Assembly (NCBI GenBank): GCA_964187785.1
Contig: OZ076411.1
Span: 76,198,001-76,262,000, forward strand
Direction: 5' to 3'
Source of the DNA: Amphiscolops sp. MND2022
Taxonomy: Eukaryota
DNA: 64,000 bases
Below, in pieces: positions 4,660-64,000 of the stretch (positions are counted from its first letter, which is position 1; the number at the start of each line of letters is the position of its first letter). The notes below the pieces were generated by a model that worked only from the letters and a program-made list of their open reading frames with translations, did no database searches and was not told the origin of the DNA. Position numbers and translations under genes: made by a program.

Positions 4660-5452
4660 ATGAATGAGCATGAGGCTGCATTGGGACTGACAACGGACCT
4701 GGAGTTGGGGAGCCTTCCCTTGACTCGGGTGAAGGCAGGTGGTGTAAGGGACTTCTTGAGGCAACGGAATATCCCATTGTTGCACGTGCCAATCCTCTGC
4801 TGCGTTGCACCAACGGAGCAGCGAGGAGGGCTGCAGTTTGCTTCCTGAGTGAGAAGCAGCTTCTGTCAACCTTCAAGGGTCCACGGATGAAGGACGTTGC
4901 TTTTGACGGTCTTCTAGAGGCTCCCTGGCGATACGAGGCCCTTTACCCAGACCCGCTAGGAGATTAATATGTGGATGTTGTCCAGGATATTAGCAGTTAC
5001 TTGCTCCTTGCTCCTTGCTCCTTGCAAGTGGTGGTAGGGCATGGAGTGGTTGGCATACCGACACCAACCCTGGAGGAAGCGTTACCAGTCAGTTGGAGAG
5101 GGAAAGGAAGTTGTGGTTCTTCACCACTCGCACACGTGAGGTGAAGATCCTCCGCAGAAAAGGCGTTGTACCTCCAGCAGATAGGCCTCGTTCCCTGCCC
5201 AGTAAGCTCCGGGATGATTTGCAGCAGTTCCGGGAGCACATAGTGTATTGCATCTAAGAGCCCCCCGATGTGGTCCTGTTCTCCCCATTGACCACGCACT
5301 GTGTGCTGACGGGACCAGGGCCAGCTGCTTTGATGACCACTACACTGAATGTCGAGGAGTCTGAGGAGGAAGGGCTTCAGTGCCAGGGCGCAGTGTCAGC
5401 CTCAAGGAGTGAGACGCGTCGTAAGGGTGCCATGTTCACGAAAGCAAAGTAG
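4660..5452 (+). pseudogene. JmjC-like (cupin, Fe(II)/2-oxoglutarate dioxygenase) pseudogene, copy 1
   Basis: Joined frames read SYLLLASGGRAWSGW-HTD-TNPGGSVTSQLERERKLWFF ... YCI*EPPDVVLFSPLTT-H-CVLTG, i.e. HxD...H triad with JmjC-type RKLW and xEPGD strands; two stops, frameshifts, and a TTGCTCC x3 expansion. Confidence 0.7.
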
Positions 5453-21130: not shown

Positions 21131-21189
21131 CTTTTCAAAACCATACTTTTAAAACCACTTTCTTCACCACCTTTCAATACCGAAAAGAA

Positions 21190-22551
21190 AATAATCGAGG
21201 CACATTTTGTAATCTAAACCACTCTGTAGTACAAAGAGTGAGACAATGTACGGTCGTATTAACCAAGCAGATTTTCAAAAAGTATTCTGCCAAGTGATCA
21301 AATCGGCCAAACGACTCTCGGCAATATGACCAAGCAAAAGTTCCTTTCACCACTCCAAACCATTATTCAGAGTTCCGGAATTTTTCTAGGAGTTGATTGG
21401 AGAATTGTTGCTGAAAACAAAGGAATGCAATAACGATTGCGAATAATTCCTGAATTACGAGTTTTTGTGTTTCAATTACATTTTCGATTATCAATCTAAC
21501 AATTACTTACATTTAGTGCTAGGATAGCGATTATCACGACAGTTTCACAACACATTTCAGATTCAGGTGAGGGGACACAGGGAGAAATCGAGCAGGAAAT
21601 TCATGTCATTCATCAGCCAAAGACTGAATGGAAAAGAAAGGACAGTTGTAAGAACCAAGAAGTAGGAAGGAACTTTTTGGCAGAATCTAGAAATGGCCAA
21701 AGTACGTTTGGACAAAATTGTATCAAATGTTCAACTTTTATACAAGCTTCTTGTAACGGAACGACAAATCTTATCAATCATTTGAAAAGGTGTAATCTGA
21801 AAACTTCAAAACTGAGTGGGCAGTCGTCAGTTAAAGCAATGTTTCCATCAACAAATGCTCCGTCAAGGCATGGTTTGAGAGAAGTTGCAAAGCTGTTATA
21901 CGTGGACAATATTCCAATGACTGAAGTTGTAAAGTCCGACACTCTGCAAAGTTTATTTCCATATTGCGGATATCATGATAATAACTACGGCAGTTTGAAA
22001 AAAGAACTCCACAGTGAATACGACATGGTTGTGAAAAAGTGCTTCCTGGGTGAAAGAAAGGCCATAAATCGGTCTTCCCGTGTTGGCGTTTGACAAATGG
22101 ACTGCATTTGTTAACACAGAATACATCGGAATTCACTTATATACAATGAAAACAAGCTACTGTCTTGTACTTGTGCATTTTACCGGTTTCTGGAGAAATC
22201 AAGAGAAAGGAGAATTAATTGCTGGACGACTTCAGATTTTTGGAATAACCCTGGACGACAAATGTTATCATTTTATTCATTACAGACAGTGGTTCAGATG
22301 TTTAAAAAATGGTTGAGAATGTTGGCGGTTTTCATATGAGCTATCTTTTTGGAATAAGCAAGACCCATTTTAAGGCCGACTGTCACCACAGCACCATAAC
22401 AGAAATGTTTTCTTGAATAAAAACTCTAAACATATTTAAGTACTGGATTTAGCATTTTCTTGTAAAGAATTTCGTTAAATGTTGTTGATTCAATTACAAT
22501 TTCAAGTATTTGGGATCTAATTGAACTAATTAGCAATTACAATTAAATCAC
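21190..22551 (+). mobile_element. hAT-superfamily transposase remnant, copy A
   Basis: BED finger CIKC...CNGTTNLINHLK (ORF 21677-22093), LAFDKWTA (first catalytic Asp region), FITDSGSDV (second Asp region), CAATTAC-type subterminal repeats. Confidence 0.75.
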
Positions 22552-22872
22552 TAAGACTTTAGGAATACTAAAGCATGTTGTATCAATCAAAATTAAAACA
22601 ACAATGAAAGTTGAGTTAAAATTATTGTTATTAACCGCCAAGTCAAAACTTGATCACACAAACTTCAAAAATGACTCATTTTATGATATGAATAGCAAGG
22701 CCTTTTCGAGAGTATTTTTACCGATATCGGAGAAATATTTCCAAAATATAAAATATTTGGCATGTCCGGGAATCGAACCCACGCCGGTCAAGTACCGGCT
22801 TTGTATTCTACCGATAGGCCAAGCTGCCTTAATATTTGTTTGCTTTGAATTAACGATATTGCGACCGCAACA
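22552..22872 (-). repeat. 3' LTR of BEL/Pao element (TGTTG...TTA)
   Basis: Starts right after the PPT, ends at the TSD, matches 31370-31690. Confidence 0.92.
22758..22828 (-). ncRNA. tRNA-like Pol III cassette inside the 3' LTR
   Basis: 71 nt GGCAGCTTGGCCTATCGGTAGAATACAAAGCCGGTACTTGACCGGCGTGGGTTCGATTCCCGGACATGCCA followed by AATATTTTATATTTT; B box GGTTCGATTCC, A box with one change; imperfect cloverleaf, so not a functional tRNA. Confidence 0.65.
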
Positions 22873-23022
22873 TCCTCCGGGCCCAAGAAAAAAAGGTTTT
22901 ATAGTGCAAAATTTTTTTCTTTTTAAATGTTTTGTGAAACATGTTTTTACATGAAAATTATTTTTTTATACATGTTGATACATGAAGCATAAATGAAGGA
23001 AGTGGATGAAGCAGAGCATTGT

Positions 23023-26000
23023 TTATTCGGGAAGGGGAAGGACGGGAGCGAGTTTGATCACTGGGCGTACAAGGTTACCAGATGCTGTTCTGACTTCAGC
23101 GGACCTGGCGACGGCGTCTGTGCCGAAGTTAAGCTTTACGACACGAGCTAGTGGATAGTACCCTCTAGGTGATGTCGGTTCAACAATCCACACGAGGTCT
23201 CCGGTATTCAGATCTCTGTTTGAATGAGATGACCACTTCGAACGGCGGTTCAGAGTGGGAACGTATTCTCTTAACCACCTGCTCCATACTATGTCGGAAT
23301 AAGCTTGCGCTCGAGCGTAACGTTTGCGATGGTCGACGTCTGCATGCTGATGCGAAGGCAGTACTGAACTTGAAGTTCCATGTAGAAAATGATTTGGAGT
23401 CAAGGCATCCAAATCGGTCGGATCGGCACTAGCAGGTACTAACGGTCGTGCATTCAAACTTTGTTCCACGAGGCAGAACGTGGTTGCAAGAATTTCATCT
23501 GTCAGACGTCTGTTTTCGAGGACAGCGTAGAACACGTGCTTGAAACTACGTACTAAACGTTCCCATACACCTCCATGGTGTGGAGCACTGGGTTGGTTAA
23601 ATTTCCACTTGATTCGTTTCTTGACAAGTGCTTCAGCGAGGACCTGTTGATTCCAGTTTCTGACGTTCTGTAACAGTTCTTTGTCACTCGCTACAAAGTT
23701 GGTGCCATTGTCTGACCAGAGAACTGATGGGGTGCCTCGTCGGGCAGCAAACCGTTCAATTCCCATCACACAACTACTGGTGTCCATTGACGGCACAACT
23801 TCAAAATGGACGGTCCGAGTAGTCAGACAAGTAAAAGGAATCCCCAGCGTTTTTCAGTAGAACGTTTCACGGACACGTAGAAGGGACCAAAGTAGTCAAT
23901 TCCTGTGTTGCGGAATGGAGGTTCTCTGTATGCAAGTCTTTCCCGGGGAAGATCGGACATCATGGGAGCTAACGTTTCAGCCTTGCGCTTACGACAAGTG
24001 ATGCACCTGGATACAACTGATCTCAAGGTTGGTCTCAATTTGACGATTGCGTATTCCTGCTGGATCAAAGTCCTTAAGTATTCAACACCCTGGTGGCATT
24101 GGTTGATATGAAAGTTCTCCAGGAACCGTCGAACAAAAGGATGACGGCTATCCAGTAAAATTGGGTGTTTCATGTCAAACGAGGCAACATCTAGTTGTTT
24201 TGTGCGACCAGAAGTTCGCAGTAAACCATTAGGTCCAATGAAAAGGGAAAATTCAACAATTTTAGAAGACTTGCTGAGGGGGAGTGACTTCAACAAGCAT
24301 TTCTTTTCAGTGTTAAAAGACTCGAGTTGTACCAGATAGAACAATCTCTTTTGGGCATTGTCGAGTTCAGTTGGGTCTGTAATAAATCCAGTTTCAGTGC
24401 GCTTGGATTCGTTCTTGGGAAGGAGTCGCAACATGTAAGCCACAATGCGCAGAAACTTCTCGTACGAACTGTACTTCTGCCATTTGAAGGTTGCTGCAAT
24501 TTCGGTTACTGTTGCGGTGATTGTAGTACACTGATGTTCTTTGGTTTTGATAACTTTATTGGAATCAGCGCCTTCATTGAGCTTCACTTTTTGACCAAAT
24601 TCTTCTGGGAGTTTGAAAGGGAAGTCGGATGTTTTTAGAAAGTCTGGTCCTGTCAGCCAACAACTGTTCAAAAGATCAGTTGCAGACATTCCACGTGTGC
24701 CCGTATCAGCCGGATTGTGAGCTGTAGGGACGTAGTGCCACTCATCAACAGTTGTTAAGTCAAGAATCTCGCATACTCGGTTCGCAACAAAGGTGGGTTG
24801 CTTTTCCAAAGAAGTTAACCACTGAAGCACAGTTGAACTATCGCACCACATGAAAGTTCTGTCTATCTTCAAAGACAGTGCACGGAGGACCTCGGCGCGA
24901 AGTCGTGCTGCAAGTAATGCGGCTTGTAGCTCTAACTTTGGAACAGTTAGTGCTTTCATAGGAGCCACTCTTGCTTTTCCAAAGACGAAAGCCAGCTGTG
25001 TCACAACACCGTTGTCATTTATTAGTTTTCCTCGCAAGAAAGCGACTGCGCTGAAAGCATCTTGTGAGCTATCACCAAACACGTGCAGCTCAATTGTTTC
25101 AACTGTTTGACAGAAGTAACTTCTTGGTATGGTAATTTCATTCAAAGTTGACAACTCTTTGCTCCATTCCAAGAACTTTGTTACAATGTCGTCTGGCAAG
25201 TTGTCGTTCCACTGCTGGCCACTAAGCCTCCAAATGTCTTTCAAAAGCAGGCGCGCTTTGATGGTGACCGGCGCAACGAGATCAATTGGGTCGTATACCG
25301 CGGATACCAAACTCAGAACAACCCTTTGAGTGACATCTTGGTCGGTGTTTGGACTTGTTCCTCTGCTAACAACTAGGGTGTCTGTTGAGTGATTCCATTT
25401 CATTCCAAGAACGTGCGAGAATTTCTCCGCAGTCGGAAACTCTTTCTCTTCTGTGGTTCTGCTGTCGCTGTTCGGATCCACTTCGATGGGGATGCTTGGT
25501 ACATTAGACACAAACTTTGTCAGTTTAAACCCCCCCAAAGCGAGCATTTTAACAAGATCCTTTGCTTTGTTAGAGGCTTCGTTAGCTGTTGGACTTGATT
25601 CGAGGTTATCGTCCATATAAAAGTTGTTGTGAACGCTTCGTGCTGCATCTGGGAAGTTAGCTTGGTTATCTGTGGCAGTTCGTTTCAGAGCGTAGTTAGC
25701 GCATGTTGGCGAATCTTTAGAGCCGAAAATATGCCGAACATACTCGAAAACAGCAACTTCAGCTGCTGGGTGCTCCCGCCACAAAAATCGAAGTGATGGT
25801 CTGTCACGTGGGATAACTCCAACTTGGAGAAACATTCCTTCGATGTCCGCAGATACAGCAAAAGGATATTGACGGAAACGGAAAAGAATGTGTATTAGGC
25901 TCTGCAGCAAATCTGGTCCTGCTAGAAGAGCACTGTTCAGGGACTGACCATGAAATTTTGCGGCTCCATTAAGAACCCTACGGACTTTGCCAGGCTTGTG

Positions 26001-29000
26001 AGGATGCACGACCGGATGGTGCGGTAAATACCATTCTCGGGGCTGGTCTACTTTAAAATAATCAGTTTTGTCCACTTGAACAATATAGCCTTTCGAGAAA
26101 TCGTCGCTAATTGTTTTCGTGTAACTGGCTTTCAAATCGGCAACTTTTTGAAGACGGCGCTCTAGCGATTTCAGTTGAATAAGTGCAGAAACATAATTGT
26201 TCGGTAAACAACTTTCGTCGTCGGCCCACATCTTACCCACTTGGTATCGGGACCCATCGTGGTATGTTGTTTCATCAAGTATCTTTGTCGCTCTCGCGTC
26301 GGTTGCAGAACGGGAATCCACTTGTTTGTACGCGCCGTACGACTCAATGTCGTACCAGCTTCGGAGTCGGTCCGAGAAAGTACAATCGTGCTCTTTCTGA
26401 GTAACAGCTTTGAAGCATGTCGAAAATAGACCCGTGGTCGACGGAAGGGGACCACTCAGTACCCAGCCCAACGGTAAACGGACGGCAACTGGGGTATTTC
26501 GGCGGTCGGATTCGAAATACTCCAGTGGGCGGAAAGCGTGGAAAACGTCCTGACCAAGAATCATTTTCACATCTGTGTAGCTGTACTTCCTAAGAGCGAT
26601 TGGTTCTAAGTGTGGATAGCGAGTCTTCAAATCATCTACGTCAATCACATCATTTCCAATAGTCAATTGATCTCGCACATAAGGTTTAACAGTAAAGGAA
26701 GAGCAAGAGCCACCCGAATGAACCGGTGTCAACTTGAACTCGACCATTTGAGTGTCAACAACCTTGTTGGAGTTAATTCCGTGTACAGTCAGTTTAGTCG
26801 GAGTGCCGCGCACGTCAAATTTGTCAGCTAGCTCGGAGGAAATCCAAGAATGGCTACACGCTGGGTCGCACAAAACTAAGACTTTTGCAGATTTCTCAGA
26901 AGTTTGCACTTCTACTTCCGTTATTTGTTATAATCCTTTCACATCAGAGATGGAAGGGAGGCATGAGGTGACTTCGTCTTTCTTTTGGATCGCTGTCGTT
27001 ACGCTACAAGTAGTTGCTTCACTATTGCCCGCTTTCCCAGATTCAGATTTTCTCGGGACAATCTTCTCTGCACCATATAGCAAAGTGTTGTGCGTACTTC
27101 CATCTTTGGTGCATTTGCGTGGCTGGGGGCAATTGCGGAAAGAGTGTTGTCCATTAAAGCATGAGAAACAAAGTTTGTTCTCGGCAACAACTTTCGCTCG
27201 TTCTGTTGGAGTCTTCTTTCTGAACACTTGACATCGCCACAACGGATGCTTATCTTTGCAAACTACACAATTAACCAATTAACTTGGAATTTCTGGGTTG
27301 ACGGCTTGGTTGCGAAGGTATTTTAGTGGAATTTGTTGTTGCAGCGAACACTTTAGAATTGGTCTTGGTTTTCGTTACGTTTCCGGTTGGAGTTTCTTCA
27401 ACTTTTGGTTTTCCTGAGGAAGCTTTCATCCTCTCGTGAGCTTCGGTTTTGTCCTTCAGCCAATCATTGAAGTCAATCAGAGTCGGTCGGCTCAAATCTC
27501 GCTTCACCGTATACATTGACCACCCTTCTTTCAAGTTCGGGGGAAGCTTTTGAACCGCTTGACCGAGCAATGAAGCACTCGAAAGATCTTGAACGTAGTT
27601 CAGAGATCGGAAAACACCAACCAAGGAGCAAATTGTAGCTGCATAACTTATGATGCTTTCGCTGTTATGCATTTTCACTGGAGGAACATTCGCTAATTTG
27701 TCCAAGTAGGCACTGACCACAGTCTGTGGTTGGCCAAATTTTCGTTCAAGAGTCTTCAGTGCGTCCTTGTACATTGTCCCACAGTACGCAAACTCAGCAA
27801 TTGCTGTTTTGGCTTTTCCAGTAACAAGTGTTTTCAAGTAAGTGAGTTTCACGTCGTCTGTAAGTGAAGAAGAATCAATGGCACTCTTGAACTGGCCGAA
27901 CCATTCATGCCATTGAAGAGGGTCGCCATTAAACTGTGCCAGTTTCCACTCAGGAAGATGGTCTTTCTTCGTCGAACTCAAAAGCTGTGCAAGGTCTTGC
28001 AATGTGAAGCTATTTACAGACGGTTGTGGCAAAGTAAACGAACTAGCAGGTACAAAAGGAGGGGCAGTAACACTGGGAAACGTTTTTACAGTTTGAGGTA
28101 CACCACAGTTTGTTGTCGATGTTACCACAGCAGTCGGCTGCACGTAGTAAACAGTTCCTCCATTCGTTATTGGGAAAACTTGTGCTGTAGATAAGACACT
28201 ATTGTTGGATGGATTGACTGTGGGTAAGCTGGTAGCGGGGGGTGGTACTACAGAGGTGGTGACTGCTGATTGTTGCAAGGATTTGGAATCCGGAAAACTC
28301 CAGGCAGACAAGTTAGGTAAAATGTGATTTACTGGAAGTGTGACTATCGGATTAGGTCGAGGCTGAGCTATTGTTGGTGCTGAAGTGATACTTACTGAAG
28401 GACAAGGATGTTGCAAAGTGCTAGCATTGTTCAAAAATAAACCAGTAGCAGCGAAGTTAGTAGCAGTTAAGTTAGTTTGACCGGGGAAACGCGGAAGCTG
28501 GCCAGGTAAACTAGCAAACGTGTTGTTAGGGTGGTTCAAAGACTCAGTTGTTGTAAGCGACAGTGGAGTCGTACCTGTGGTGTTTTCCGTTTGGGGCGGA
28601 ACATTATTTTGCACCGTAACAAATGTAGGCGCTGATACACTAGTGTTTTCAATTGATGGAGATGCAGCTAAGGCCAATGGTTGCGTACCAACGATCTGTT
28701 CCTGATTCGATTCAACAATGGGTGCTTCAGGGGCACGTTCATTGGTAGCAGATATCAAAGTGGGAGAATTATTAACCCAATTGTTAACTCGGGTTGACTG
28801 ATGTTCGTGGCTCTCCTCACTCAAAAGTGATAGCGTCTCCTGGAATTCTTCATTTGTCGCCGACAGATCATCTTGAAGTTCTAATTGAATCAGTGTCGCC
28901 TCAGCCAGTTTTTTGCGGTTCTCTTCCTGCAAGGCGACTCTAAGTGCAAGTTCTTCCTTGAGACGCTCTTGTTCTTGCTGCATTCGTTTGATTTCAAGAT

Positions 29001-29507
29001 CTTGCTTTTGCTGAGTCAGTCGGAGTGTAGCTTCATTTTGCTTCTCAATTTCTTCACGCCTTTGTTTTGCAAGGAGTAGCTCTTTCTGCCGTTGACTTGA
29101 CGTCTTTGATCGAAGAGAGCTTGAAACTTTACTAGACTTTGTCTTGTTCGTCGATAGAACTATTGAAGTTTGCGAAGCGTTGTCAGTTTGCAGACATTTC
29201 TCCAGATAATTGCGAGCTTTCGTCAGTATTTCATCATTTCTGACAATAACGTCGTTTAACCACTTTTCCAAGTCTGGCTTCACTGACTCTGGGTTGGTTG
29301 ATTTGTTGGCTAAGTCTAGGAGTTGTTCGTTTTTTGCAAAGGTTTTAGTCATAGCTTCCTCACACGAGGTGATTAATCGATCAACGCGAACACGTCGTTC
29401 GGCATTTCCAACGGCGTCATTGAGTTTTTTTGACGTTGTTGAGCTCCGCTTTGGCTTTAGCGCGGCTATCATGCAACTTGGCGACTTTCTCTTGCATCCT
29501 ATCAGCC
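23023..29507 (-). pseudogene. BEL/Pao gag-pol polyprotein with about four lesions
   Basis: Likely start MADRMQEKV at 29507; LPEWKLAQFNGDPLQWHEW, knuckle CVVCKDKHPLWRC/CFSCFNGQHSFRNC, VLCDPACSHSW, YLPHHPV, VSADIEGMF, NFYMDDNL, LHVFGDSSQDA, VPKLELQAA, TGIDYFGP, WSDNGTNF, APHHGGVWER. Lesions: extra A ~29430, insertion ~27275, TAA at ~26928, 1-nt deletion ~23845. Confidence 0.95.
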
Positions 29508-29949
29508 ATTGAATGTTTTCCTAACTTTTTGGATCAATGTAGTGTGTTATTAGGACACGAATTGTAGTGTTTCCAGCACTAAATTATGTTCAAAACAGCA
29601 GAATCACTTACAGAACATCAACCAGACAACTAAATCCGGACACAATACTGAAAGTTAACTATGCGGTTGTCTATTAATGAAAATTCCACAGTGACAGATC
29701 AAAAGAAGATACTACAAAATTTACAAGTACAAAATCTACGAGTTTAAAATGTTGCGGAGTATGTTGCGTTGGAAAGACGGTTAATTTATTTGTTTTGGTT
29801 CAAAAATAGGCACTAAGGAACTACGAGGACGGTATAAGACAAGAGTAATGAAGAACACGCAGTTATGGTATTGAAACGGTCGTTTTGAACGTCAACCGGA
29901 CAGTCAAGTCCGGACACAGTCCAAAACTTGGAGGAAAGTTGTTGCGACT

Positions 29950-30591
29950 TCAACCTGACAATGAAGTCTGGACACTGTCACAACAACAGTCCTTTGGGGA
30001 GGAAGAAACTTCACTTTGATTTGAAGCCTTACGGGCACGTTTACTTGGTCGCTCAGGGCGAGTTTTGGCTGTAATCTGCGCTAGATCGGTTTCTTTTCGG
30101 AGAATGATGTCCAAATACTTGAGTTCAAACTCAGGTCTTTGGTGTATTGCCTTCAATTCGTTCAAAATTTTTGGATCATTTTGTTTTCTTGTCGAAAAGA
30201 AATCGGTTTCAATTCGGAAAACAGGAATGCTTTGCGTTTTTAGAATATCAGAAATGTCGGGCGTTCTAATTCGGTGGCAATACACAAGAGCCCGGAGTTT
30301 GTTTTCTAGAGATCGTAAAATATCTAGTAATTGAGAAACAGATAACGCTCGAAAATTGTTGCTTTTATGTTTTGACAAGCTATTGTTCAGCACATCGTGC
30401 CAAATCACGATCTCATTTTTTTGCAAAATCTTTTAGCAACAAATATTGGACAATTTTTTGCGGGTTTTTGCTTGATTATTCAAACTAAGGCCCGGAATGG
30501 TGTAAATTTTTTCTTTTAGGAAAGAATTTTCTTCAGTTGGTAAAGTCTCCAAAGCATGATGCAATGAGCTCGCACCCAAAATAAACACCAT
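29950..30591 (-). pseudogene. SGNH/GDSL-hydrolase-like ORF (two frameshifts) between PBS and gag
   Basis: Joined frames: MVFILGASSLHHAL (block I-like Ser), IYTIPGLSLN (block II Gly), IVIWHDVLNNS (block III Asn), ELKAIHQ (late His), basic tail RPSKRARK. Fold call is by motif order only. Confidence 0.5.
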
Positions 30592-31350
30592 TACATTTTA
30601 CAATACAATACCTTTTTTTGGAAGATTTTCTTTTTTGACTACTCACAAAGTTAGTAGTTCTTTTTTCAATGCAAAAATTTGTTGCATTATTCAAGCGTTT
30701 TTTTTCAAAGAATTGTTCGGACACTTCACGAAAGATGTTTTTTTTCGAATTGAAACATTGTTGTGTTTAGTCAAAGGTTCCTATCAAAGGCCCTGCTATT
30801 GAAGGAGCAACGGTTTCACAAATGACATCACAAAAAAAGGTAGTTTAAGTTTTTTTTTGTTGCTAACGACCTAGGGGCTCCAGGATTTCTGGGCTATCAC
30901 TGGGTATCTTGGCTGGGGGGTTACATTCGTCTGTATAGGCGAGGGGGCGTTCCCTAGTCAGTTTTCAGTTCAGCTGGTAGTGAAGTAAAACCTCTCGATT
31001 CCTGCTGTCGGTTAGTTAGCTGCGAATTGTAATTGAAATTGAAGTGGTACCGACTTGGCTGATATTTTTATTCACATTGCCGGATAGTAATTGCACGTGA
31101 GAGGATAAATTGCTGTTATTGAAAGAGCAAATCACAATGTTCAATCGAAATAGGAAAAGTAAAAAGGAAAATGAGGGGGCTGTGAGCTGTAAATCAAGCT
31201 GAAATATACTGTGACAAATATAATCAACCGATTTGCTTTTGTAGAGGTGCAAGCGTCAAACTTTGGCAGTCTGAAGAGAATTTCTTGAACTAATCAACAG
31301 CCAATTCAAGATTCATGAATAATAGGCACTTAGTTTTTGACAATTTCGTG

Positions 31351-31367
31351 CCTCTCAATGTCCACCA
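31351..31367 (-). promoter_or_regulatory. Probable primer-binding site of the 22552-31690 element
   Basis: TGGTGGACATTGAGAGG begins 2 nt after the 5' LTR end; cognate tRNA not identified. Confidence 0.55.
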
Positions 31368-31369
31368 TA

Positions 31370-31690
31370 TAATACTTTAGGCATACTAAAGCATGTATTA
31401 TCAATCAAAATTAAAACAACAATGAAAGTTGAGTTAAAATTATTGTTATTAACCGCCAAGTCAAAACTTGATCACACAAACTTTAAAAATGACTCATTTT
31501 ATGATATGAATAGCAAGGCCTTTTCGAGAGTATTTTTACCGAAATCGGAGAAATATTTCCAAAATATAAAATATTTGGCATGTCCGGGAATCGAACCCAC
31601 GCCGGTCAAGTACCGGCTTTGTATTCTACCGCTAGGCCAAGCTGCCTTAATATTTGTTTGCTTTAAATTAACGATATTGCTACCGCAACA
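31370..31690 (-). repeat. 5' LTR of BEL/Pao element
   Basis: Same length and about 97% identity to 22552-22872; flanked by the TSD. Confidence 0.92.
31576..31646 (-). ncRNA. tRNA-like Pol III cassette inside the 5' LTR
   Basis: As 22758-22828 but with consensus A box TGGCCTAGCGG at +8; B box GGTTCGATTCC; TTTT 4 nt downstream. Confidence 0.7.
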
Positions 31691-31695
31691 ATCAC

Positions 31696-33073
31696 AAAAG
31701 GTAAATACAAATATTTGAGAAGCGCATAATCGAGGCATATTTTATACTCTGAATCACTCTATAGTACAAAGATTGAGACAATGTACGGTCGTATTGCGCA
31801 GGCAGATTGTCAAAACGAATTCTGCGAAGTGATGAGAACGGCCAACCGACATTCGGCAATATGACTCAGCAAAAAATTTTTTCACCACTCGAAAACATCA
31901 TCCTCAGTTCAGGAGTTCTTCTAAGAATTGATTGGAGATTTGTTGCTGAGAACCGGAGATTGCTATTAAAAGTGCAATTATTTCATGCAATTACGATTTT
32001 TTGTGATTCAATAAAAATTTCGGTAATCATTCTAACAATTTCTCACGATCAGTGCTAGGATAGCGATTATTACGATTGTGTCAGAAATAATGTCAGATTC
32101 TTGTGATGAAACACAGGGAGAAATCGAGCAGGAAATTCATGTCATTCATCAGCCAAAGATTGAAATGAAATAAATGGATAGTTGTAAGAACCAAGAAGTA
32201 GGGAGGAATTTTTTGGCAGAATATAGAAATGGCCAACGTACGTTTGGACGAAAACATATCAAATGTTCAACTTTTATACAACTTCTAAAAACGTAACAAC
32301 AAATCTTGTAACCTGAAAACCTCAAAACTGAGTGGGCGGTTGTCAGTGAAAGCAATGTTTCCTTCAACAAATGCTCCGTGAAAGCAGGGTTTGGGAGAAG
32401 TTGCAAAGCTGGTATACGTGGACAATATTCCCATTCCTGAAGTTGTAAAGTTCGACACTCTGCAAAATTTATTTCATTGTCGCGGATATCATGTTATTAA
32501 CTACGGCGGTTTGAAAAATGAACTCGACGGTGAATACAACATGGTTGTGAAAAATTGCTTCCCGGGTGAAAGATCATAAACCGATTTTCCCGTGTTGGCA
32601 TTTGACAATGGCGCTGGACTTCATTTAATAACACAAAATACATTGAGTATCACCTCTATACAATGAAGTCAAGCTCTCTTGAACTTGTGCCTTCTACCGG
32701 TTTCAGACTTTTTACTTGACTTTTGGAATGACCCAGGACAACATATGTCTATTTATTACAGATAGTGGATCAGATATTTAAAAGATGGTTGAGAATGTTG
32801 GCGCTTTTCATATAAGCAAGCTTCTGGAATAAGCAAGACCCATCTCCAAGGCCGACTGTCACCACAGCACCATAACAGAAACGTTTTCCTTTAAAAAACT
32901 TGAAACTTATTTAAAAGTTCGATTTATCATTTTATTGTAAATAATTTCGTTTATATTTGTTGATTCAATTATGATTTCAAATTTTTGGGAACTAATTGAA
33001 CCAATTAGCAAATACGATTAAATCACGAAAATTCAATTACAATGATTTGTAAAGCGAATAATTGCTAACCCTG
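31696..33073 (+). mobile_element. hAT transposase remnant, copy B
   Basis: Colinear with copy A from ATAATCGAGGCA, about 80% identical; extends to ...TTGCTAACCCTG, a possible TIR end. Confidence 0.7.
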
Positions 33074-35697: not shown

Positions 35698-36906
35698 ATG
35701 AACCCAAAAGAAACGGTGGACGCGGGTGCGGATGTTAGTGACAGCGAGGAGGGGCCTTAAACAGTCCCAGAATAGAGTCGTGTTGAGGAGGTGTTCGCTG
35801 AAGTGGAGCAGCGTGGAGGACTGGCGTGGCGACAGACGGGAATTCTTCCACTGTTGGTGGTCTCCATCTTCAGCTGGGGGAACAAATTTCCAACTGTCCC
35901 AACGGTGGTTCGAGGCGCTGCAGCAGACAGTCTCTGTGATTTGGCTGCCAGAGTCAAGTCACTTTGGAATAAGGGTGCTTGTGCGTACTCGGACTTTTTG
36001 CAGTCAGCAGGAGCCACTGTTACAAGTCGCAGCAAGGGGAGGGACAACCGGGGTTTTGAGGGCAGCAGAACGTGCTCGTTTGTGTTGCCTGACTCGGCTG
36101 TCAATTGTCTTGCTCCGGACTACATCAAAGTTGGATCCAAGGCACTTTTAGCAGCGAAGGGGCCTTGGATATTATGTGGACATATTGAACCAGGTGGGGG
36201 AGAGAGTATTGCCAAGCTATCGTCCGGCCGCAAGCTGTGGATCATAGCTACCAATATTGGCTCTTCCAGATTCCTTATGTCCATTCAAAGCTTTGATCAT
36301 TTTTATCAGCTCTTGATGGGTGCAAAGTCAGAACGTTCGAAAACGCATAAGCATAACAAAAGAAACATTCGTGGTTTGCGGTTTCACTTAGCTGAAGAAG
36401 GTGACGTGTTAATTCAGCCTGCTTTTTATGCGCATTGTGTTCTAACGGGTCGAGCTTATGCTGCTGATGGTTCTACTCGATTGGCACTTGTGCATGGTTG
36501 GGAGGGACTGGATTTGCGCCACACTAGGCGAGCTAGCAGTGTTTTTAACAGTGTCAGTACGGGTTGCGGAAGAGGCTATATCTCACAGTGGTTGAAGAGG
36601 TACGGAAAGGATAAGTTGTTGTCACTTCTGACTGTCAGAGACTGGAAGCTTGCCCTGGCAGCCTGGCGTAAGTTTCAAGTTCAAGTCAGTCTGAACCCAT
36701 CAATTTCTCTTTCCCGTACTGAGACGTCTGTTAGATCTTTCCTCTCTCGGAGTGATGTACTGGAACACTTTGAGGCCTTCGTTAACTATGGTTTCAATTT
36801 GGAAGCTCACCTTCCAGTTCCCAAATTGGAGCTGTCAGCGAAGTCCCGAAGAAAGGAAAATCGCTTGCTGGCTAACTTGAAAAAGGGGATCAGAGTTTAC
36901 GTCTGA
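35698..36906 (+). pseudogene. JmjC-like dioxygenase, copy 2 (371-codon open frame; two stops near the upstream ATG)
   Basis: KALLAAKGPWILCG-HIE-PGGGESIAKLSSGRKLWII ... LAEEGDVLIQPAFYA-H-CVLTG; ATG at 35698 is in frame but followed by TAA (~35758) and TAG (~35773); no introns evident. Confidence 0.7.
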
Positions 36907-50238: not shown

Positions 50239-51294
50239 AAAGTGTCCAGAGGCGAGCAACCAGACTCGTACCCGGCATTGATAATCTTAACTACGAAGAC
50301 AGGTTAAAAGAATTGTATCTTCCAACTCTCGAGTACAGAAGACGGCGCGGTAGAATGATTGAGGTATACAAAATACTAAATGAATGTTACGACAGGAAAG
50401 CGACTGAAGGGTTATTCGAATTGAACGAAAGAGAGACCAGAGGTAACCCTTACCAGCTGAAGACAAAGAAACCGAGACTAGCAATTAGAAAGAACATTTT
50501 TGCTCTCGCTGCAGTAGCGGATTGGAATTCATTGCCAGAAACAGTTGTGCGCTGTGACAACGTATACGCTTTTAAAAGAAGTTTAGACAGACACTGGGAA
50601 CACAAAATGTTCAACACCGAGTTCCTTGTGAGAAATGGACTCACATGAAAGGGCTGATCGACAGAGGCTGTGGCCTACAGATCAGAAAAGAACCTGTGAA
50701 CCTGTAAATTAGAGTAAAATCTAATTTGTTGCCATTTGTAAATTAGAATCAATCTAATTAGTTGAATGTTTGAATTAGAATCAATCTAATTTGCTGAAAG
50801 GTGGGAGAGCAAGTTAAAGTTTTAACTCGACTGAATTTTACTAAGGTGACAGAAACTGTGGGAAATGAGAACAAAGTATGAACAAATTACGAAATCAATG
50901 ACGTATACATTTTTGCATGTGAGTGTTAGTCAGCATAAATAGTTTGAGATTTGAATGTTTAGCTTTCATCTGCTTGCTTTAGTTGTGCTTCAACAACGAC
51001 GATCCAATTCTAATGAAAGGTAAAAATATATTCTGCTCCATTCGACCGAGTTTTCTGTGTGGTAATCCTGCAACGAATATTTGGGAAAACATTTTCTGTT
51101 TGGCATTTCAGCTAATTTTAGGAATTTCCCGCCAAAACCCACGTATTTCGACCAATATGGCACCAGATTGGCGAAACTTTGGTCTCCTCTCTTTTTTTGA
51201 GAATTCCAGTCCCGGAACAAATGAAGTTTCGGCCGAGAAACAAATTGTACTTGGATTGTGCTTTCCTCTTCATTTTGATCTTTTCTAGAAAGCA

Positions 51295-52881
51295 ATGAGC
51301 GACACAGACCAGGCTAGAAAAGAATCTAGAAAAGAGCCTCGTGCAGTTCAAATCATCGAAGCTAAAGGCAATCATACTTTCGAATTAAATTTGGAAAACC
51401 TCAAAGAAATTGTTCAGAGACCTCATGTTAGAGACAAAAGAGTCATGGTGTTATCTGTTGCTGGTGCATTTAGGAAAGGGAAATCGTTTTTGTTGGACTT
51501 TCTTTTGAGGTATTTGAAAAAAATCAACTTCGGTGAATCTGGTCGTGATTGGCTTGGAGATCCTGAGCAAAAATTAACCGGTTTTTCTTGGCGAAGTGGA
51601 TCAGAGAGAGATACCAACGGGATTTTAATGTGGAATGAACCTTTCTTCATCAAAACAGCAACTGGTGATGACGTCGTTGTGCTTTTAATGGATACACAAG
51701 GGTCTTTTGATAACCAGTCTACTGTTCGAGATTGTGCGACAATATTCGCACTCTCCACAATGATAAGTTCATGTCAGGTCTTCAATATTAGTATGAACAT
51801 TCAGGAAGACGACTTGCAGCATCTTCAGCTTTTCACAGAGTATGGTCGTCTTGCTCTACAATCGGCTCAGGGGAAACCATTCCAGAGACTCATTTTTCTA
51901 GTCCGAGATTGGAGTTTTCCTTACGAGTATCCATATGGTCCTGAAGGAGGTGCAAAAAAGTTGAGCAAAATTCTTCAAGTTTCTGAAAAACAACATGATG
52001 AGTTGAGGAATGTTAGAGCACATATTACTAGCTGCTTTTCCCACGTTGATTGCTTTTTGATGCCACATCCAGGTCTCAAAGTCGCTACCTCTCCTGAGTT
52101 TACAGGACAACTCAGGGATATCGAACCAGCTTTTCAGGAACAGTTATCAAACCTCGTCAGTTATTTATTTGACCCAAGTCACATTCAGTGTAAATTAATA
52201 AACGACCAGTCAGTTACAGCTGCTGATTTAGTAGCTTACTTTGAATCTTACATGAAAATTTACCAGGGTGATGAATTACCCGAACCAAAAACGATGCTAC
52301 AAGCTACTGCCGAGGCGAACAACTTAGCCGCTGTTTCTGCAGCTCGGGAGTTGTACCAAAGCGAAATGGAGTTATTCTGCGGCGGTGATAAACCTTATAT
52401 GAAGGCTGAAGTTCTGGAAACACATCACAAACATTTGTCAAGTCGAGCAGTTGATAAGTTCAAATCAATCCGAAAAATGGGTGGAACTGAGTTTAGTGAG
52501 CAGTATGCGTTGCAGCTCAGTGAACAAATTAACGATCTTTATGTGGGTTATCATAAACAAAATGAGGCGAAAAACTTGTTCAGTACTGCCAAGACACCTT
52601 TAACTTTATTCATTCTCATGATTGTGTGTTACTTTGCGTCGGCAGCTTGTGCTATGTTGGGTGCGATCACTTTCTCGAACCTCTTCAATATTTGTCTGGG
52701 CGTTATGATTCTGTCAATCTGTACTTGGTCTTATTCTAGACTAACAGGAGACTATAGCGAAATAGCAGTTACCATCGACACGTGTGCTGAAGTTGCATGG
52801 GACAATTTCGTGTCTACCGTAGTACAGAAAGTTACCGAAAAAGGGTCTCAATCAATGGTGACCATTTTAAATATGACTTGA
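51295..52881 (+). CDS. ATL: Atlastin (dynamin-like ER fusion GTPase), single exon, 528 aa
   Basis: G1 GAFRKGKS, G2 WRSGSERDT, G3 DTQG, G4 LVRDW; EATAEANN-type helical bundle motif (QATAEANNLAA); two closely spaced C-terminal hydrophobic segments; uninterrupted frame. Confidence 0.96.
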   Translation: MSDTDQARKESRKEPRAVQIIEAKGNHTFELNLENLKEIVQRPHVRDKRVMVLSVAGAFRKGKSFLLDFLLRYLKKINFGESGRDWLGDPEQKLTGFSWRSGSERDTNGILMWNEPFFIKTATGDDVVVLLMDTQGSFDNQSTVRDCATIFALSTMISSCQVFNISMNIQEDDLQHLQLFTEYGRLALQSAQGKPFQRLIFLVRDWSFPYEYPYGPEGGAKKLSKILQVSEKQHDELRNVRAHITSCFSHVDCFLMPHPGLKVATSPEFTGQLRDIEPAFQEQLSNLVSYLFDPSHIQCKLINDQSVTAADLVAYFESYMKIYQGDELPEPKTMLQATAEANNLAAVSAARELYQSEMELFCGGDKPYMKAEVLETHHKHLSSRAVDKFKSIRKMGGTEFSEQYALQLSEQINDLYVGYHKQNEAKNLFSTAKTPLTLFILMIVCYFASAACAMLGAITFSNLFNICLGVMILSICTWSYSRLTGDYSEIAVTIDTCAEVAWDNFVSTVVQKVTEKGSQSMVTILNMT

Positions 52882-61620: not shown

Positions 61621-64000
61621 TCAAATCATGCCAGGCAATTTCGTTTGCGATGAATCTTGCTAGTCAAAACCGCTCCATAGACAATCCTCCGAGAAATTGT
61701 AGCATCAAATTCTTTTGATCAAAAATTGAATATTGCTTTCATTCTGGTTGAAGTTCGCGATAGATTGAGAAGCTTTTCGCATTTCAGCATCATCAGTCTC
61801 TGAAAGACAAACATCAGTTGTAAACATTAGACATGAAAAATTCATAGCAACGTCATTATTTTTTTTGGAACAACATGCTAGAAATGAGTCATCAGTTCGT
61901 TCTGATGATTTTGCTTGCGTGTGTTCATGCTGGATCTCGCAGATGGGTCTTCGCTTCCCGGCTAAGATGTGGACCACTTTGGTGTTGTTGGTCTCGAGGG
62001 TAGTATTGCATTGTTCAAAGTGTTGCTGAACCGGAATGCTTTTCCTAGCATGATCTCGGAATCGAGCGGATAAATTTGCCAGACATATAGCCTGTGTTAC
62101 AACTAGGACCTTTGATTTTATAAAGTACTCGGCTGCTCGTGATCATTGCAATAGGTGTTTTTAGCACAGACATGTACGTCATCAGTCTCCGCAAGGTAAA
62201 TGTAGGTTGAACTTCGTGTGACTTCAACGCCTTGGTAAACTTATCCGTGAGTTTGCCCCGATATTGGATGGGTTCTTTTTTCGGTGTTTGCTAGTTAGTT
62301 CTACTGGTTTTTTGTGAGTTCGTGGGGTTTATTGGTTTCTTTCCAGGTTGCTGCAGACCTGTTCTAATCAGTTGTCGAATGCTGCCCATGTTGAGGTTGT
62401 TTGGTGGATCCGAAAGACGCAGCTGCCTATCGCCTCAGACTTCTTGTATTGCGTCGGAGCAAGAGCTCGGGAGCTGTATCGATAAATATAGTCCTGTATC
62501 AGTTGGCTGCTTTTCATTGATGCAAGATTTTCATTCATGGCAGATTGCTGTTTTGCAAATTTTTTCAAGTATAAAGTGGTTTTCGTGTTGGGAGGGATAA
62601 AAACCAAATGGAGGGGTCATCCAACTGCGTCAACAAAAAATTGCTCAAGTTTGAAAATTTGATGTGAGCTCCTAATTTTTGCATGCCATTGTAATTCTGG
62701 TCACAAAACTTCAGACCGTTTGACTTTTGGAGGATGTTTATCAAAAAGGATCTGCTTTTATCAAATCATGCCAGGCAATTTCGTTTGCGATGAATCTTGC
62801 TAGTCAAAACCGCTCCATAGACAATCCTCCGAGAAATTGTAGCATCAAATTCTTTTGATCAAAAATTGAATATTGCTTTCATTCTGGTTGAAATTCGCGA
62901 TAGATTGAGAAGCTTTTCGCATTTCAGCATCATCAGTCTCTGAAAGACAAACATCAGTTGTAAACATTAGACATGAAAAATTCATAGCAACGTCATTATT
63001 TTTTTTGGAACAACATGCTAGAAATGAGTCATCAGTTCGTTCTGATGATTTTGCTTGCGTGTGTTCATGCTGGATCTCGCAGATGGGTCTTCGCTTCCCG
63101 GCTAAGATGTGGACCACTTTGGTGTTGTTGGTCTCGAGGGTAGTATTGCATTGTTCAAAGTGTTGCTGAACCGGAATGCTTTTCCTAGCATGATCTCGGA
63201 ATCGAGCGGATAAATTTGCCAGACATATAGCCTGTGTTACAACTAGGACCTTTGATTTTATAAAGTACTCGGCTGCTTGTGATCATTGCAATAGGTGTTT
63301 TTAGCACAGACATGTACGTCATCAGTCTCCGCAAGGTAAATGTAGGTTGAACTTCGTGTGACTTCAACGCCTTGGTAAACTTATCCGTGAGTTTGCCCCG
63401 ATATTGGATGGGTTCTTTTTTCGGTGTTTGCTAGTTAGTTCTACTGGTTTTTTGTGAGTTCGTGGGGTTTATTGGTTTCTTTCCAGGTTGCTGCAGACCT
63501 GCTCTAATCAGTTGTCGAATGCTGCCCATGTTGAGGTTGTTTGGTGGATCCGAAAGACGCAGCTGCCTATCGCCTCAGACTTCTTGTATTGCGTCGGAGC
63601 AAGAGCTCGGGAGCTGTATCGATAAATATAGTCCTGTATCAGTTGGCTGCTTTTCATTGGTGCAAGATTTTCATTCATGGCAGATTGCTGTTTTGCAAAT
63701 TTTTTCAAGTATAAAGTGGTTTTCGTGTTGGGAGGGATAAAAACCAAATGGAGGGGTCATCCAACTGCGTCAACAAAAAATTGCTCAAGTTTGAAAATTT
63801 GATGTGAGCTCCTAATTTTTGCATGCCATTGTAATTCTGGTCACAAAACTTCAGACCGTTTGACTTTTGGAGGATGTTTATCAAAAAGGATCTGCTTTTA
63901 TCAAATCATGCCAGGCAATTTCGTTTGCGATGAATCTTGCTAGTCAAAACCGCTCCATAGACAATCCTCCGAGAAATTGTAGCATCAAATTCTTTTGATC
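61621..64000 (-). repeat. Tandem array, 1140-bp period, derived from the 3' part of a Penelope-like retroelement
   Basis: Units start at 61621, 62761 and 63901 with about 4 differences between the first two. Minus strand KQPTDTGLYL, LAPTQYKK..TSTWAAF (RT C-terminus), TLRRLMTYMSVLKTPI, VLYKIKGPSCNTGYM (GIY-YIG-like), YRELQPE; lesions are shared by the units. Confidence 0.88.

Follow-up and report, generated by a model that had tools for sequence, protein, structure and literature searches.

The 64,000-nt stretch of the Amphiscolops sp. MND2022 assembly GCA_964187785.1 that was analysed here (contig OZ076411.1, positions 76,198,001 to 76,262,000; referred to as the window) contains a BEL/Pao retrotransposon with an additional open reading frame (ORF), designated ORF0, ahead of gag. 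We propose that ORF0 is a conserved accessory gene with a predicted SGNH fold, which was probably swapped between transposon classes, would be translated by leaky scanning and, instead of forming part of the particle, may work on a host target as a serine esterase. To this statement as a whole we give about an even chance of being correct.

The ORF0 copy in the window begins with an ATG at position 30591 and ends with a TGA at 29952-29950 on the minus strand. Its motif pieces (GASS and PG, a short bridge, and WHDVLNNS followed by a late His) are spread over three successive frames. When the copy was aligned with three natural intact sisters, three deletions emerged: two short ones, near 30470 and 30423, break the frame, and a third, near 30028, preserves it. 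Together with the element map, this alignment confirmed the initial annotation, which had described a twice-frameshifted frame on the strand of gag, between gag and the primer-binding site (PBS), and had suggested looking for intact copies. The frame did not arise by chance because searches of the same genome (1.07 Gb, animal-type content) yielded 41 matches at the DNA level (best 40 of 552 candidates scored) and, at the protein level, matches of 58-99% identity, most of them lacking internal stops (best 150 of 3336 candidates scored). The sister locus L007 is collinear with the window across 28405-31690 at 96%, and in most other sisters the collinearity extends from gag up to about 30620-30860, where the leader begins to differ. 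A separate insertion of ORF0 at 29950-31000 can be ruled out since the collinearity of the sisters runs across ORF0 and on into gag; the insertion boundaries for which the initial annotation had advised a search were not present in this interval.

The structure predicted from a natural intact sister shows a flavodoxin-like alpha/beta fold of the SGNH type, and the family alignment contains the blocks in the order S-G-N-H, both as anticipated from the window copy. The block I Ser (S7 in 92/97 rows; motif GAS/AAS, not GDS) follows strand 2-5, where helix 7-14 begins, the block II Gly is G33 (92/99 rows), the block III Asn is N70 (91/99 rows; motif HDxxN, with a register assigned from order and secondary structure), and the block V His is H150 (92/98 rows), ahead of the last core helix. 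The preservation of Ser, Gly, Asn and His in the absence of the acid suggests that ORF0 is a Ser-His esterase; its substrate may be of the lipid or acetyl kind envisaged in the initial annotation. Moreover, the protein has a net charge of +3 to +40 and a Lys/Arg-rich tail. Several observations weigh against an active SGNH enzyme. At position 147, where the block V Asp would be expected, the residue is variable, with K, R and Q being most frequent; passages of PMC4021074 describe this Asp (DxxH) as frequent but not universal among SGNH/GDSL proteins. Given the absent block V acid, the GAS/AAS in block I and the HDxxN in block III, catalysis is not assured. Furthermore, the 25 Pfam families listed for 99 ORF0 members include no GDSL/SGNH match, a sequence search of the PDB with the family gave no match, and the Foldseek TM-scores of the model were 0.44-0.48. 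The ZfL2-1 esterase was absent among the fold matches listed for ORF0. Some of the ESM Atlas clusters nearest to ORF0 (0.93) carry Lipase_GDSL_2 on 23-46% of their members, with 155-157 shared features, which may serve as a lead. One could also picture ORF0 as a non-catalytic SGNH binder like the OSK domain of Oskar, with the transposon RNA being steered or shielded through its binding to RNA or to a component of germ-line granules. However, Ser, Gly, Asn and His each show a conservation of 90% or more across members whose identity falls to 27%, and dead enzymes rarely retain such catalytic residues. In addition, OSK only ranked 31st in the fold comparison, after active esterases. We therefore regard a non-catalytic binder as quite improbable.

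ORF0 is present in transposons of several kinds. Among 20 loci at 57-74% identity, ORF0 is located 5' of BEL gag-pol in 18, while one locus has pol upstream only and one is without a hit. A further 40 more distant loci, which were hand-picked for diversity, comprise 19 BEL/Pao elements, 12 long interspersed nuclear elements (LINEs), 2 Gypsy elements, 3 copies of an EnSpm/CACTA-like element, 2 loci of one tandem array and 2 unclear cases; the pol proteins of these 19 BEL/Pao carriers are down to 24% identical. In BEL and Gypsy copies, ORF0 lies between paired long terminal repeats (LTRs). In LINEs, it is found inside full elements with a common 5' end, a TA tail and target duplications, where it precedes a PHD-type or other ORF1 and an ORF2 for endonuclease and reverse transcriptase (RT), with its own stop 53-99 nt ahead of the ORF1 ATG (L081, L082, L091, L095, L108). 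The three EnSpm-like copies (L103, L104, L106) are collinear at 92-96% and contain ORF0, a SET-domain gene and a transposase-like gene in this order. They also have long subterminal tandem repeats, and their inverted end-like repeats are separated by about 18 kb. The transposase-like gene matches DUF1258 (E 2.7e-8) and, under the cut-off, Transposase_21 (E 1.3e-4). The assignment of this DNA element as EnSpm/CACTA-like is therefore made with moderate confidence. ORF0 relatives also occur in two metagenome contigs and among database proteins, whose best match in the genome studied here is just 43-46% identical; the family is therefore not restricted to this assembly. Viral contigs yielded no relative. 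A possible link between SGNH/Oskar-like genes and adintoviruses found no support in the search made and was dropped. The tandem array consists of a 1.9-kb ORF0 unit (L101, L102; G000:C10:424000-441200), has lost the block V His and lies near a scaffold end. In L094, a full-length three-ORF LINE lies between 74-nt perfect direct repeats (element ends, region of 4690-4764), an unusually long target duplication.

The ORF0 family has likely been swapped repeatedly among the BEL/Pao, Gypsy, LINE and EnSpm-like transposons of this genome, as judged from its phylogeny. In a tree of 54 rows, which came with long-branch warnings, the carriers are intermixed. Approximately unbiased (AU) tests under a mixture model with 32 rows, from which 22 near-duplicate, outside or unclear-carrier rows had been removed, rejected a single clade for BEL (p 6.7e-8), for LINE (p 1.9e-15) and for the BEL-A group (p 6.9e-5); the groups were set by carrier, and the tests were run after the first tree was known. 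A set of 16 BEL-A RTs, which overlaps with these rows, forms one clade with 98/99 support (38 of 40 loci used). Relatives of ORF0 exist in three other, unrelated transposon kinds, which makes it likely that the gene is a swappable helper able to serve any transposon. Against a general role it has to be said that the family was detected in only 2/20 top-scoring BEL loci, one of them a fragment, and in 0/20 Gypsy loci, both samples being biased to the best Pfam scorers. ORF0 is optional for its carriers.

ORF0 is under purifying selection in BEL and LINE carriers. The ratio of nonsynonymous to synonymous substitution rates (dN/dS), which was determined for 23 ORF0 pairs by the Nei-Gojobori method with bootstrap intervals, is 0.06-0.29 with intervals below 1 in 16/23 pairs, all from these carriers, and 0.09-0.20 for the downstream gag-pol in the three measurable pairs. 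Together with the sister collinearity, this selection substantiates the earlier view of ORF0 as integral cargo of the element. The result is less favourable for the five young pairs, to which every Gypsy and EnSpm-like pair belongs: their dN/dS of 0.37-0.94 has intervals spanning 1. Two further pairs are saturated. These data also bear on the idea that ORF0 merely attenuates translation or hitch-hikes as a repeat, with a protein that would not benefit the carrier. The loss of AUG codons described below and the weak start context do indicate selection on the RNA, the 1.9-kb array has no carrier genes, and ORF0 is missing from many elements. However, the dN/dS of about 0.1 between subfamilies, as in gag-pol, largely refutes this idea; the active-site residues are retained, and own termini or a target duplication around ORF0 were not found in the carriers examined. 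It is thus very unlikely to be correct.

The distribution of start codons suggests how such a gene could be expressed. In 31/32 loci, one having been left out as it lacks an ATG near the start, ORF0 contains 82 internal ATGs, whereas 242 are expected; antisense and next-ORF controls showed no depletion. These loci, half of them BEL-A, are related and hence only partly independent. In-frame ATGs number 3 in 6219 codons of ORF0 (117 expected) and 114 in 8109 codons of the next ORF (121 expected), while 52 of the 79 out-of-frame ATGs in ORF0 open frames of at most 5 codons. Furthermore, a pyrimidine occupies base -3 at 26/31 ORF0 starts and a purine at 21/29 next-ORF starts. ORF0 is therefore likely to be translated from the same RNA as gag via leaky scanning: some scanning ribosomes would initiate at the weak ORF0 AUG, and the remaining ones would travel about 1 kb of AUG-poor sequence to gag or ORF1. 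Leaky scanning would make ORF0 a drop-in cassette that can be placed ahead of any first gene. Two observations do not fit this scheme well. The leader has several upstream ATGs, and in the EnSpm-like copies ORF0 follows an AG and the next gene is kilobases away, so leaky scanning need not hold there.

The LTRs of the window element contain a tRNA-like segment, from which the initial annotation had derived a lineage defined by ORF0 plus an RNA polymerase (Pol) III-type LTR. This lineage did not hold up because ORF0 is also present in BEL elements without such an LTR and in LINE, Gypsy and EnSpm-like elements. The Rfam tRNA clan match is weak (E 1.5, under the gathering score); ARAGORN with default settings called no tRNA anywhere in the window, and with relaxed settings it called a tRNA in 6/10 LTR segments. 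In BEL-A, A and B boxes with a divergent middle are kept near the LTR start in 14/24 loci, and the LTRs of other carriers lack the segment. Being restricted to part of BEL-A, the segment marks a subclade rather than ORF0. A coupling of the two was rejected: a B box lies within 1.7 kb in just 15/34 LTR-element loci (14 BEL-A, 1 outside its LTR). Scanning requires a capped Pol II transcript, and the segment is thus unlikely to be the mRNA promoter. Besides the window copy, the loci of coding BEL/Pao families in which the LTR keeps the segment while its middle diverges are L053-L070, L105 and L114.

The weakest part of our proposal concerns the function of the protein. The Ser-His dyad would strip an acyl group off a protein or metabolite of the host, and the protein would reach the nucleus or nucleic acid by means of its Lys/Arg-rich tail. 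The benefit would be independent of the carrier's mode of movement and would most likely consist in relief from silencing. The reason why transposons carry SGNH esterases has been a question since these were discovered in LINE ORF1p, membrane handling being the usual idea. ORF0 could be a lipid-binding or lipolytic esterase that directs the ribonucleoprotein (RNP) or the particle of the element to membranes, which is the role proposed for the esterase of the ZfL2-1 ORF1p. According to passages of PMC3905857, the latter hydrolyses pNP acetate, binds negatively charged phospholipids and belongs to proteins with arginine-rich motifs. The ORF0 protein is basic, too. Moreover, ORF0 would be co-translated with gag or ORF1, and 33/40 of the divergent loci are retroelements. 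However, the carriers include the EnSpm-like DNA transposon, whose life cycle lacks an RNP or particle stage. ORF0 stands alone instead of being joined to a coiled coil (no longer, fused form was scored, which is weak evidence), and its basic tail fits a membrane role less well. We therefore consider the membrane role unlikely. A host-directed, possibly anti-silencing role is preferred because the benefit would be common to LTR, LINE and DNA elements, the tail is basic and chromatin-type cargo is found in elements of this genome, namely the SET gene beside ORF0 and JmjC genes in BEL leaders. A single family that is selected in BEL/Pao and LINE and also occurs in Gypsy elements and in a DNA transposon of the cut-and-paste type points to a job independent of the transposition mechanism. 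In its boldest form, which we regard as possible though doubtful, ORF0 would be a pan-transposon counter-defence cassette: an AUG-free SGNH enzyme whose deacylation disables a host silencing factor and which is passed among LTR, LINE and DNA transposons, costless owing to leaky scanning. The family supplies many natural intact proteins of 200 residues for assay, and its AUG-free design could explain in a simple way the movement of accessory genes between element classes.

A second, canonical SGNH family (DS, PG, GGN, DxxH) occupies the same position in 4/20 BEL loci (family loci: L129, L131, L139, L140, L193-L198). Its copies are found in BEL leaders, with the L139 copy in frame with gag-pol, in each of the two LTRs of further BEL elements (L193, L194) and 5' of a LINE ORF1 (L196); internal ATGs are nearly absent in 4/5 copies. 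A profile comparison with the ORF0 family gave no match (probability 0.4%; only 7 rows on one side).

The features of the window element are compiled in Table 1. The element is of the BEL/Pao type, with gag-pol domains in a Gypsy-like order (the RT match being RVT_1) and LTR ends that read TA instead of CA in this copy; its type was also examined in the RT tree, by way of the sister locus L206. A search for the priming tRNA gene with one exact pattern from the PBS gave no match.

Table 1 Features of the BEL/Pao element in the window
Feature	Position	Strand	Basis
BEL/Pao element, 9.1 kb	22552..31690	-	paired LTRs and gag-pol
5' LTR, 321 nt, TG start, TA end in window copy	31370..31690	-	sequence
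3' LTR, 97.2% identical to 5' LTR	22552..22872	-	alignment
Target-site duplication, 5 nt	31691..31695 (5' copy), 22547-22551 (3' copy)	-	sequence
tRNA-like segment in 5' LTR, A- and B-box-like motifs; repeated in 3' LTR	31577..31646	-	weak matches
PBS-like 18-mer, TGG start, 2 nt past LTR	31350..31367	-	sequence
5' leader, upstream half subfamily-dependent	30592..31349	-	sister comparison
ORF0, accessory gene with predicted SGNH fold; two frameshifts and in-frame deletion	29950..30591	-	sister alignment; fold from natural intact sister
Spacer from ORF0 stop to gag ATG (29509); single ATG at 29618	29510..29949	-	start-codon scan
gag-pol, BEL/Pao type: DUF1759, protease region, RT, Peptidase_A17, integrase; interrupted in window copy	23026..29509	-	domain matches
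Polypurine-tract-like sequence	22873..22884	-	read from sequence

The element is flanked by two copies of a 1.3-kb repeat in the same orientation (21182-22554 and 31717-33029; 79-89% alike), one with a weak BED-finger match. A JmjC-like ORF (35776-36903, plus strand) adjoins a neighbouring BEL element on the opposite strand and resembles the JmjC ORF of L127:2583-3461 (minus strand) and L128 (30% over 119 residues, E 3e-8), which BEL copies bounded by LTRs carry in their leader in antisense orientation (Pfam E 2.6e-5). Elsewhere, an intronless MYST acetyltransferase ORF (L136:2586-3545, minus strand) is arranged head to head with a BEL polyprotein, either as cargo or as a flanking gene. The window also contains one long ORF of the guanylate-binding protein/atlastin family (51289-52878, plus strand; Pfam GBP E 3.6e-87) and a tandem repeat with a 1140-nt period (61621-64000), of which the compared stretch is identical between copies.

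The literature searched contained no report of SGNH genes in BEL/Pao or CACTA-like elements, with subscription papers and Repbase, which may hold one, lying outside the search. The main text of a BEL/Pao survey (PMC3118150) mentions env only, with no occurrence of 'esterase', 'lipase' or 'hydrolase'. The tRNA-like segment has a counterpart in the Helenus/TRIMp3 elements, which also harbour A and B boxes within their LTRs; as far as described in passages of PMC10886601, Helenus is short, non-coding and non-autonomous, unlike the 9.1-kb window element with gag-pol, and autonomous elements are argued to need Pol II. Leaky scanning through the AUG-free ORFs I and II has been described for rice tungro bacilliform virus (passages of PMC5902531), which likewise has a long upstream ORF with a weak start and no internal AUG, followed by the main polyprotein. 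However, the proof in this plant pararetrovirus is experimental, whereas the ORF0 case is read from the sequence, and some short out-of-frame AUGs persist in ORF0. As regards the gene itself, SGNH cargo is known from CR1/RTEX/Penelope ORF1p (passages of PMC3905857). Like ORF0, the ZfL2-1 esterase (CR1/L2/RTEX) represents an SGNH fold at a retroelement 5' end with a basic motif nearby. There, it is an ORF1p domain with a full S-D-H triad and a coiled coil, whereas ORF0 is separate, precedes a PHD-type ORF1 or gag and lacks a conserved triad Asp. The SGNH ORF of amphibian Ngaro elements (PMC9210276) and Texim of fish Helitrons (PMC4021074) are further extra transposon-borne SGNH genes of unproven function, the latter in a rolling-circle DNA element. 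Their carriers and positions differ, Texim has introns and host-like copies, and the passages concerned do not show cross-class exchange of one family. The bdelloid Vesta LTR retrotransposons carry a GDSL/SGNH ORF3 in common with Athena Penelope-like elements, its function being untested there (passages of PMC5408684). Vesta ORF3 is likewise a stand-alone SGNH gene in an LTR element that unrelated retroelement classes of one host lineage have in common. It is located 3' of pol in non-BEL clades, whereas ORF0, which is devoid of the block V Asp and stripped of internal AUGs, comes first among the ORFs of its carriers, which are BEL/Pao, Gypsy and LINE elements and a DNA transposon.
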